Positions 7,815-7,886 of a stretch of 18,146 bases of DNA are shown here, in pieces; within the stretch, counting starts at the first letter, position 1; each line of letters starts with the position of its first letter. Source of the DNA: a virus. Lineage: Duplodnaviria > Heunggongvirae > Uroviricota > Caudoviricetes. Both the position numbers and the translations under genes were made by a program. The stretch covers positions 1-18,146 of the IMG/VR virus record IMGVR_UViG_2534682222_000018; one strand, written 5' to 3'. The notes under the pieces are model-generated. The model was not told where the DNA came from and did no database searches. It worked only from the letters and a program-made list of their open reading frames with translations.

Positions 7815-7886
7815 TTAACTACGAGTTAAGGTTATATCTTAACTGACAGTTATGTCAACTCTAATTGATAATTAACGAATGGTTAA
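7815..7886. promoter_or_regulatory. OR-like operator cluster with divergent PR (cro) and PRM (leaderless cI) promoters
   Basis: Three TTAAC-N5-GTTAA dyads: 7815-7829, 7839-7853 and 7872-7886 (the last overlaps the cI ATG). PR on minus strand: -35 TTGACA (plus 7853-7858), 16-nt spacer, -10 TATAAC (plus 7831-7836). PRM on plus strand: -35 CTGACA 7843-7848, -10 GATAAT 7867-7872. Confidence 0.5.

Follow-up and report, generated by a model that had tools for sequence, protein, structure and literature searches.

The window, by which we mean the whole 18,146-bp stretch of viral DNA analyzed here, carries a pair of divergent regulatory genes, one cro-like and one cI-like, separated by 84 bp (72-80 bp in relatives). 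Three copies of a 15-bp dyad, TTAAC-N5-GTTAA, lie within this gap as OR, and two more form an OL region that has N downstream of it. The cro-like gene is followed by cII-, O- and P-like genes. The features are listed below, with mismatches counted against the dyad consensus.

7549-7794, minus strand: Cro-like protein of 81 aa with a YdaS-type HTH, first gene of the PR operon
7815-7829: OR1 (cro-proximal), TTAAC-TACGA-GTTAA, TTAACTACGAGTTAA, 0 mismatches
7831-7858, minus strand: predicted PR, −35 TTGACA (7858→7853), 16-bp spacer, −10 TATAAC (7836→7831), start near 7824
7839-7853: OR2 (middle), TTAAC-TGACA-GTTAT, TTAACTGACAGTTAT, 1 mismatch
7843-7879, plus strand: predicted PRM, −35-like CTGACA (7843-7848), 18-bp spacer, −10 GATAAT (7867-7872), +1 at the A at 7879
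7872-7886: OR3 (cI-proximal), TTAAC-GAATG-GTTAA, TTAACGAATGGTTAA, 0 mismatches
7879-8655, plus strand: cI-like repressor of 258 aa, with an N-terminal XRE-type HTH of the 933W family to about 8160 and a C-terminal S24 peptidase domain, phi80/HK225-like
10025-10146: OL/PL specificity island of about 122 bp, with DNA on either side common to the heteroimmune phages HK225 and phi80 (three-way alignment)
10099-10113: OL2 (left), TTAAC-CAATG-GTTAT, TTAACCAATGGTTAT, 1 mismatch; its final base also begins the PL −35
10113-10141, plus strand: predicted PL, TTGACT (10113-10118), 17-bp spacer, AATAAT; reads into phi80-identical nutL/N
10123-10137: OL1 (right), ATAAC-CATTA-GTTAA, ATAACCATTAGTTAA, 1 mismatch; in the PL spacer, overlapping the −10

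An earlier note on this DNA had deduced the consensus by inspection, and each of the five dyads was recovered where it had placed them, with the same centre-to-centre spacings (24 and 33 bp at OR, 24 bp at OL). When up to one mismatch was allowed, TTAAC-N5-GTTAA occurred five times in the 18,146-bp window, at these positions and nowhere else. Dinucleotide shuffles of the whole window gave an expectation of 0.24 sites, and none of 200 reached five. Because both intergenic segments are AT-rich (GC 0.25-0.27), local shuffling of these two segments alone was added; here the mean was 0.045 and the maximum 2, and 0 of 5000 shuffles reached three. Among all 1024 possible 5-N5-5 palindromes, TTAAC was tied second by count and was the only top-ranked one whose matches cluster in intergenic DNA. 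A search for an alternative repeated motif in OR or OL found none. A terminator-like hairpin at 10098-10138 was considered and rejected as a terminator; it is a by-product of the two adjacent palindromic operators, OL2 and OL1.

The dyads are interleaved with promoter-like elements. OR1 adjoins the predicted PR −10 and overlies the predicted PR start, while OR2 sits within the PR −35/−10 spacer and carries the PRM −35-like CTGACA in its own N5 spacer. That the third OR site covers the cI start codon, as the earlier note had claimed, is directly visible: the dyad centre is the A of the ATG (7879-7881), and the right half-site encodes codons 2-3 of cI (Val-Lys). A promoter scan scored both PRM (CTGACA-18-GATAAT) and PL (TTGACT-17-AATAAT) at 10/12. 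The predicted PR was found by eye and is absent from the scan list because its −10, TATAAC, has no T at position 6 (the usual T at −7); its layout matches that of 933W (TTGCAA-16-CATAAT) and of other family members. The predicted PR and PRM starts lie about 55 bp apart.

Relatives of this region were gathered with a 17-mer DNA pattern taken from OR2 and the PR −35, since a protein pattern of the CI N-domain had no match in genome contigs and a homologous-protein search with the same domain yielded only seven fragments. The pattern matched 70 times; about half of these matches were due to chance and were discarded, including one Lysinibacillus false positive. We kept 39 OR loci representing 12 distinct haplotypes and 31 OL loci representing 23, and every related locus that extended as far as OL (31 in all) had the OL pair. 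In these haplotypes the half-sites are the most conserved non-coding columns: 3 of 44 half-site columns (OR and OL together) vary, compared with 84 of 127 other non-coding columns, N5 spacers included (p = 1.5e-12, Fisher's exact test, columns forced by the search pattern left out). Within the N5 spacers taken separately, 12 of 17 columns are variable. The OR2 spacer and right half lie inside the search pattern, and conservation there is uninformative.

The same picture holds for the individual sites. OR1 has invariant half-sites and a variable N5 in the 12 haplotypes, OR3 has invariant half-sites around five spacer variants (GA, AC, GT, GC or AA before the ATG), and OL2 has invariant half-sites around nine N5 variants in 31 loci. 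OL1 occurs in six variants, with changes confined to position 1 (A/C) and the N5. Across 52 half-sites from distinct operator variants, T2, A3 and C5 are present in 52/52 and A4 in 51/52; position 1 can be T, A or C, and Y predominates at position 6. The PL TTGAC and TAATAATC are invariant in the 23 OL haplotypes, and the PL −35 aligns with the annotated phi80 PL −35.

A natural exchange of specificity can be read from phi80 and HK225. These phages share nutL/N with the window, whose positions 10147-10600 are 100% identical to phi80; this identity begins just past the annotated phi80 PL −10, at about the PL start (+1). They also share the small ORF to the left of OL and have a nearly identical C-domain in CI. 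They differ in the CI N-domain, and exactly at OR and at the OL island (10025-10146) they carry AAATC(A/C)ACA-type repeats. The TTAAC dyads are confined to two DNA segments specific to the window's immunity type, and it follows from the phi80/HK225 comparison that they travel with the N-terminal DNA-binding domain. The claim that a single repressor specificity serves both OR and OL is supported, within the reach of computation, by the highly conserved half-sites, by their restriction to the immunity-specific segments and by the different repeats at the same positions in phi80 and HK225. In phi80/HK225 there are also three OR sites, spaced 33 and 24 bp, in reversed order relative to cro; unlike those of the window, their operators are 19 bp long, there are three OL sites, and the cI leader is about 13 nt long.

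The proteins point in the same direction. By tblastn the CI N-domain is 33% identical to 933W cI (E = 1e-7), and its closest phage relatives are those of the Shigella phages 75/02 Stx and POCJ13 (69% identity). A profile search with this domain matched the HTH structures of P22 C2, TP901-1 CI and 434; the Pfam HTH_3 score was 17.9 bits, below the 23-bit cut-off, and full-length CI had no match in a PDB sequence search. The C-domain belongs to Pfam Peptidase_S24 (PF00717, 1.2e-15), and in an alignment with the phi80, 933W and 75/02 repressors the catalytic Ser/Lys dyad of LexA/CI-type autocleaving repressors, S173 (in GDSM) and K215, is invariant. By these alignments CI is chimeric: its 933W-family N-domain is joined to a phi80-type C-domain near residue 93 (about 8160). 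Relatives have the cI start at the same position according to RefSeq annotation. The Cro-like protein matched Pfam YdaS_toxin at 5e-07 (29.9 bits, just below the 30-bit curated cut-off) and shares 40% identity with 933W Cro across 50 aa (E = 5e-15) and 82% with the Cro of 75/02 Stx. ORFs in the rex position had no PADLOC match, and lambda-type CII boxes (TTGC-N6-TTGC) for PRE were not enriched.

The immunity region of 933W and Φ24B is reportedly the subject of studies by Tyler et al. 2004 and Koudelka et al. 2004. In the GenBank annotation (EF517298) its sites are CGTAC-N5-GTACG-type 15-mers; according to PMC3064807, Φ24B and 933W have identical immunity regions. The annotated sites are as follows.

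933W/Φ24B OR1: CGTACTTTCAGTACG
933W/Φ24B OR2 core: TGAACTGAAAGTTTT
933W/Φ24B OR3 core: CGTACTCATGGTTCA
933W/Φ24B OL2: CGTACCAATAGTTCT
933W/Φ24B OL1: CGAACTATTGGTTCA

The OR centres of 933W/Φ24B are separated by 24 and 32 bp, the OR3 dyad is centred on the cI ATG, and the two OL sites are 24 bp apart with a −35 (TTGATA) between them. Published work describes the 933W operator as 15 bp long and rotationally symmetric, with A and C invariant at positions 4-5 and T or C at position 6, and assigns repressor contacts to K46 (position 5) and S41 (position 2) (Bullwinkle et al. 2012, PMC3317979). OL3 is absent (PMC5977221; PMC3064807), binding is non-cooperative, and PRM is repressed through OR3 (PMC5977221). 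The window resembles 933W in each element of this layout: the operators are 15-bp 5-N5-5 sites in which positions 4-5 read AC and position 6 is Y; OR has three of them, spaced 24 bp (OR1-OR2) and 33 bp (OR2-OR3; 32 bp in 933W), and the A of the cI start codon is the centre of OR3; OL has only two, at equivalent positions 24 bp apart around the PL −35. The PR −35 at the OR2 edge, the 16-bp spacer and the −10 adjoining OR1 are alike as well, and the CI N-domains and Cro proteins are homologous, including the position-5-contacting Lys: CI K51 aligns with 933W K46 and is invariant in nine family members. Counted from the first base of the cI start codon, the OR sites are centred at −57, −33 and 0 in the window and at −56, −32 and 0 in 933W, where the dyad scan flagged OR1 alone and the offsets come from annotation and sequence. 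The three OR regions align column for column.

The two switches differ in what they would recognize. The half-site is TTAAC in the window and CGTAC/TGAAC in 933W (positions 1-3), the recognition helix is SEPGIWKWLN in the window and SSKGVSKWFN in 933W, and the window has a 5-residue insertion before this helix. CI E46 and P47 align with 933W S41 and K42, and a Glu at the S41 position together with TT instead of CG at operator positions 1-2 (T for G at position 2) would offer a consistent structural rationale for the new specificity. The window also lacks stx, and its cargo is stk-free. Since the C-domain is phi80-like, the non-cooperative binding of 933W cannot simply be transferred to this CI; oligomerization and cooperativity may differ, and a 933W-type non-cooperative mode with the affinity order OR1 > OR2 > OR3 may not carry over.

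Further homologous switches, with N-domains 31-43% identical, were found in Salmonella SI8, Aeromonas phiARM81mr, Pseudomonas D14L, Providencia PSTNGR2lys and a human-gut phage contig. Offsets of about −57, −33 and 0 recur in SI8, phiARM81mr, D14L, PSTNGR2lys, MT837188 and 75/02 Stx, and dyads near these positions combined with a −10-like hexamer 6-7 nt before the ATG are present in eight further switches, seven of which were included in the dyad scan. An OR2 spacer that contains TGA and resembles a −35 is found in each of the five further phages and in 933W and 75/02 Stx. The half-sites vary with the recognition helix, being TTAAC in the window, TGAAC/TGTAC in several members, TCAAC in the gut phage and AGTAC/GGAAC in D14L. 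The earlier note had regarded the spacing and the operator on the repressor start codon as unusual, and this did not hold: the 24/32-33 spacing, the operator centred on the cI start and the two-site OL are published and annotated features of 933W/Φ24B and recur in the other members of the family that we looked at. The layout is a family trait and ordinary biology.

Among the nearest known systems are 75/02 Stx and POCJ13 (NC_029120, NC_025434), which have the same half-sites at the five positions (TTAACTTCGAGTTAA, TTAGCTGACAGTTAT, TTAACGTATGGTTAA, TTAACTTTGAGTTAT, CTAACCAACGGTTAA) and an identical recognition helix, with CI 77% and Cro 82% identical. Their N5 spacers and inter-operator DNA have diverged, and the rex-position cargo and replication module differ. 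The two phages are probably homoimmune with the window prophage. A prior description of the TTAAC/GTTAA specificity or of the POCJ13 operators was not found in the searchable literature, an absence that is no proof. CP-933P, with its PaaR2/YdaS pair, is similar in having a lambdoid-type divergent switch with a YdaS-type Cro, an experimentally leaderless repressor and toxin-antitoxin cargo downstream of the repressor, but differs in its 18-bp palindromic repeats with the half-site consensus GTTTAGTAA, a repressor lacking S24 and three OL sites (PMC8630535). The immunity type itself is rare, with most of it found in 9 of 5426 complete E. coli genomes. It is also present in Enterobacter sichuanensis and in many IMG/VR prophage contigs.

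With lambda, the window has in common the divergent PR/PRM pair with three shared CI/Cro operators, an OL that controls PL and N, and the 24-bp OR1-OR2 spacing, which is 24 bp in lambda too. In lambda the operators are 17 bp long, OR2 and OR3 are 23 bp apart, OR3 falls within the −10/−35 region of PRM, OL has three sites, and about 83 bp separate the starts of PR and PRM. The window departs from this layout, with 15-bp operators, OR3 on the predicted PRM +1, OR2 over a −35-like hexamer and two OL sites.

The earlier note had also proposed that cI has no Shine-Dalgarno sequence and that PRM transcription starts on the ATG, which is well supported by the sequence, if unproven. The sequence ahead of the cI start codon has no SD, and two codons upstream a TAA in frame (7873-7875) excludes an upstream start codon. 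Six nucleotides separate the end of GATAAT from the ATG, so that the A occupies the usual +1 position. GATAAT is invariant in 12/12 OR haplotypes, and in nine family members a −10-like hexamer of the form xAxxAT, with A2 and T6, is found 6-7 nt ahead of the ATG. The sequence thus favors a leaderless cI mRNA, for which there are experimental precedents among repressor genes in lambda cI and in PaaR2 of CP-933P (PMC8630535; PMC3342100).

A competing account would keep the operators as described and place the PRM start upstream, for instance from TCTAAT (7860-7865), so that cI would have a short leader without an SD. TCTAAT matches TATAAT at five of six positions, and the PRM −35 match that we favor overlaps OR2, which is odd in an activated promoter. 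However, TCTAAT varies at three of its six positions in the 12 haplotypes in which GATAAT is invariant, no usable −35 can be read upstream of it, and the A2/T6 hexamer before the ATG is kept in nine of nine family members. Moreover, a start from TCTAAT would still give a leader of only about 7 nt, with the in-frame TAA and no SD. We regard this account as unlikely, and prefer the start on the ATG.

A more radical doubt is that the dyads are chance palindromes or are bound by another factor, be it a host protein or Cro alone, while CI binds elsewhere. Short palindromes are indeed commoner in DNA as AT-rich as OR and OL, yet the local shuffles never reached even three sites, the half-sites outrank every other class of non-coding column in conservation, the positions are equivalent to the experimentally defined operators of 933W, the dyads switch together with the CI N-domain, and neither region offers another repeated motif. 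This makes the objection hardly credible, and the five dyads are almost certainly, as far as sequence can tell, the repressor/Cro binding sites of a lambdoid prophage. It could further be argued that OL is lambda-like, with a degenerate third operator at 10080-10094 (ATAACCAATGGCAAA) or at the orphan TTAAC at 10057-10061, and with OL-OR looping onto OR3. The first candidate matches OL2 at 12 of 15 positions, the second is kept in nearly all OL haplotypes, and in phi80 a third OL site lies about as far away. Against this, 10080-10094 is unconserved (it reads ATAACCAACACAGAA in CX21, and 75/02 Stx has nothing comparable), the half-site at 10057 is without a GTTAA partner in every haplotype, and 933W has no OL3. 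We found no conserved third dyad among the OL haplotypes and rejected a third operator on the ground that its candidate is not conserved; a lambda-like OL with looping of this kind seems quite improbable, and the two-site OL is the reading that we retain. The TTAAC half-site at 10057-10061, 42 bp upstream of OL2, is noted here as an observation in its own right.

The control of PRM may deserve separate consideration. With +1 at 7879, the centre of OR2 is at −33, on top of the PRM −35-like hexamer. In lambda, the OR3 centre is near −19 of PRM and the OR2 centre near −42, beside the −35 and not on it; by lambda logic an operator centred at −33, over the −35 hexamer, is in a repressing position. 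Since OR2 lies on the PRM −35-like hexamer, lambda-style activation from OR2 cannot simply be assumed. Alternatives to such activation may be a relief of competition between PR and PRM or co-binding on opposite faces of the DNA. We tentatively raise the possibility, which we consider doubtful at present, that PRM control in this switch family departs from the lambda paradigm. If so, positive autoregulation would arise from the relief of PR/PRM competition when OR1 is filled or, by the other route, from joint occupancy of one DNA segment by the repressor on one face and sigma region 4 on the opposite face, and a lambda-type contact from an adjacent site would play no part in it. The geometry behind this non-lambda reading is conserved and consists of OR2 over the −35-like hexamer, OR3 on +1 of a predicted leaderless mRNA, the start distance of about 55 bp and the interdigitated −35 elements. 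On this reading the repressor's N-terminus and its specificity would also have to co-evolve, since codons 2-3 are part of the OR3 half-site.

Taken as a whole, the window is very likely, on comparative grounds, the immunity region of a lambdoid prophage whose switch is homologous to that of 933W and has a different operator specificity. How CI and Cro would bind, in which order of affinity the sites would fill, where PRM would start and whether CI at OR2 could activate it are matters that we infer from this layout. We propose that dimeric CI, with its 933W-family HTH N-domain and phi80-like S24 autocleavage C-domain, and the 81-aa Cro would recognize (T/A)TAAC-N5-GTTA(A/T), with positions 2-5 (TAAC) as the specificity core. 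CI at OR1 (the PR start) or at OR2 (the PR −35/−10 spacer) would turn off transcription of cro-cII-O-P. OR3 would be centred on the PRM +1, the A of the cI AUG, and by virtue of this position high levels of CI, or Cro, would shut off cI transcription; the PRM transcript would be leaderless or have a leader of at most 1-2 nt. On the left, OL2 and OL1 would bracket the PL −35 and fill the spacer, so that N and the leftward operon are repressed, and the proposed switch would have no third OL site.

What is new here is the TTAAC operator specificity within the known 933W-type switch family, and not a new kind of regulation. The (T/A)TAAC-N5-GTTA(A/T) sites provide a comparatively validated operator set for an uncharacterized immunity group that includes the Shiga-toxin Shigella phages 75/02 Stx and POCJ13, and this set would be usable for the prediction of cross-immunity and for reporter design. 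Furthermore, the window and 933W form a natural specificity-swap pair, in which helix positions 1, 2 and 5 (EP..W in the window, SK..S in 933W) can be set against operator positions 1-3.

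In the OR region, the coding start of the predicted repressor gene cI (7879-8655, plus strand) overlaps the operator OR3 (7872-7886), whose right half (7882-7886) forms codons 2-3 of the gene. Across the family of 933W-type switch phages (cI starts of the window and of L007-L013), the repressor N-terminus follows the operator, GTTAA giving MVK, GTTCA or GTACA giving MVQ, and GATGA giving MDD. The predicted starts of the divergent promoters PR (minus strand) and PRM (plus strand) lie only ∼55 bp apart (7824-7879), and as a consequence their -35 hexamers interdigitate. Simultaneous occupancy of the two predicted promoters by RNA polymerase looks impossible. 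The PRM -35-like hexamer, CTGACA, falls within the N5 spacer of OR2 (7839-7853), and its “TGA” is kept in all nine family members examined. We also observed a perfect inverted repeat, GTTAA-CTATA-TTAAC, in the PR leader (7805-7819), overlapping OR1 (7815-7829) and with an arm polarity the reverse of that of the operators (GTTAA first). Conservation of this repeat does not extend to 75/02 Stx, a Shigella phage with the same operator half-sites, and the repeat is therefore probably incidental.

Further features lie downstream of cI:
8772-9766, cargo in the rex position, 3' of cI: a 194-aa ORF and a 139-aa YafO-family toxin
9765-9786, GC-rich hairpin with a T-run after it, located where the cI-cargo operon ends, between convergent genes
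9788-10036, minus strand, small ORF between the putative cargo terminator and OL

The 139-aa cargo protein was assigned to the YafO toxin family by Pfam (3e-16), no family match was found for the 194-aa ORF, and neither of them gave a PADLOC match. Two unrelated hypothetical genes take this position in E. coli 88COLEC. The hairpin at 9765-9786 is probably a bidirectional intrinsic terminator. The small ORF, convergent with the cI operon, is common to the window and HK225 (gp41) and carries a strong SD (AGGAGG) ahead of an internal ATG near 9996; it returned no family match and no PADLOC match. A promoter for this ORF would fall within the OL region.

OL and the predicted promoter PL form a specificity island of ∼122 bp (10025-10146) inside DNA that the window has in common with the heteroimmune phages HK225 and phi80. 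The right junction of the island falls approximately at the predicted PL transcription start, and the sequence from 10147 on is phi80 nutL/N (100%). A “terminator-like” hairpin of 17 pairs at 10098-10138 (minus strand), returned by a scan, was rejected as an independent terminator because it represents OL2 (10099-10113) pairing with OL1 (10123-10137). Separately, a lone TTAAC half-site is present 42 bp upstream of OL2, at 10057-10061. Nearly all of 23 OL haplotypes from related loci keep this half-site (TCAAC in one), and a GTTAA partner at 5 bp is absent from all 23. The half-site may act as a weak site or belong to a leftward promoter.

The CI protein itself has two parts: residues 1 to ∼93 belong to the 933W family, and from “IPPESEW” on it is nearly identical to the CI C-domain of phi80 and HK225. 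The domain junction lies near 8160 in cI, and the HK225 megablast match begins at 8161. The repressor of the window is a domain chimera.
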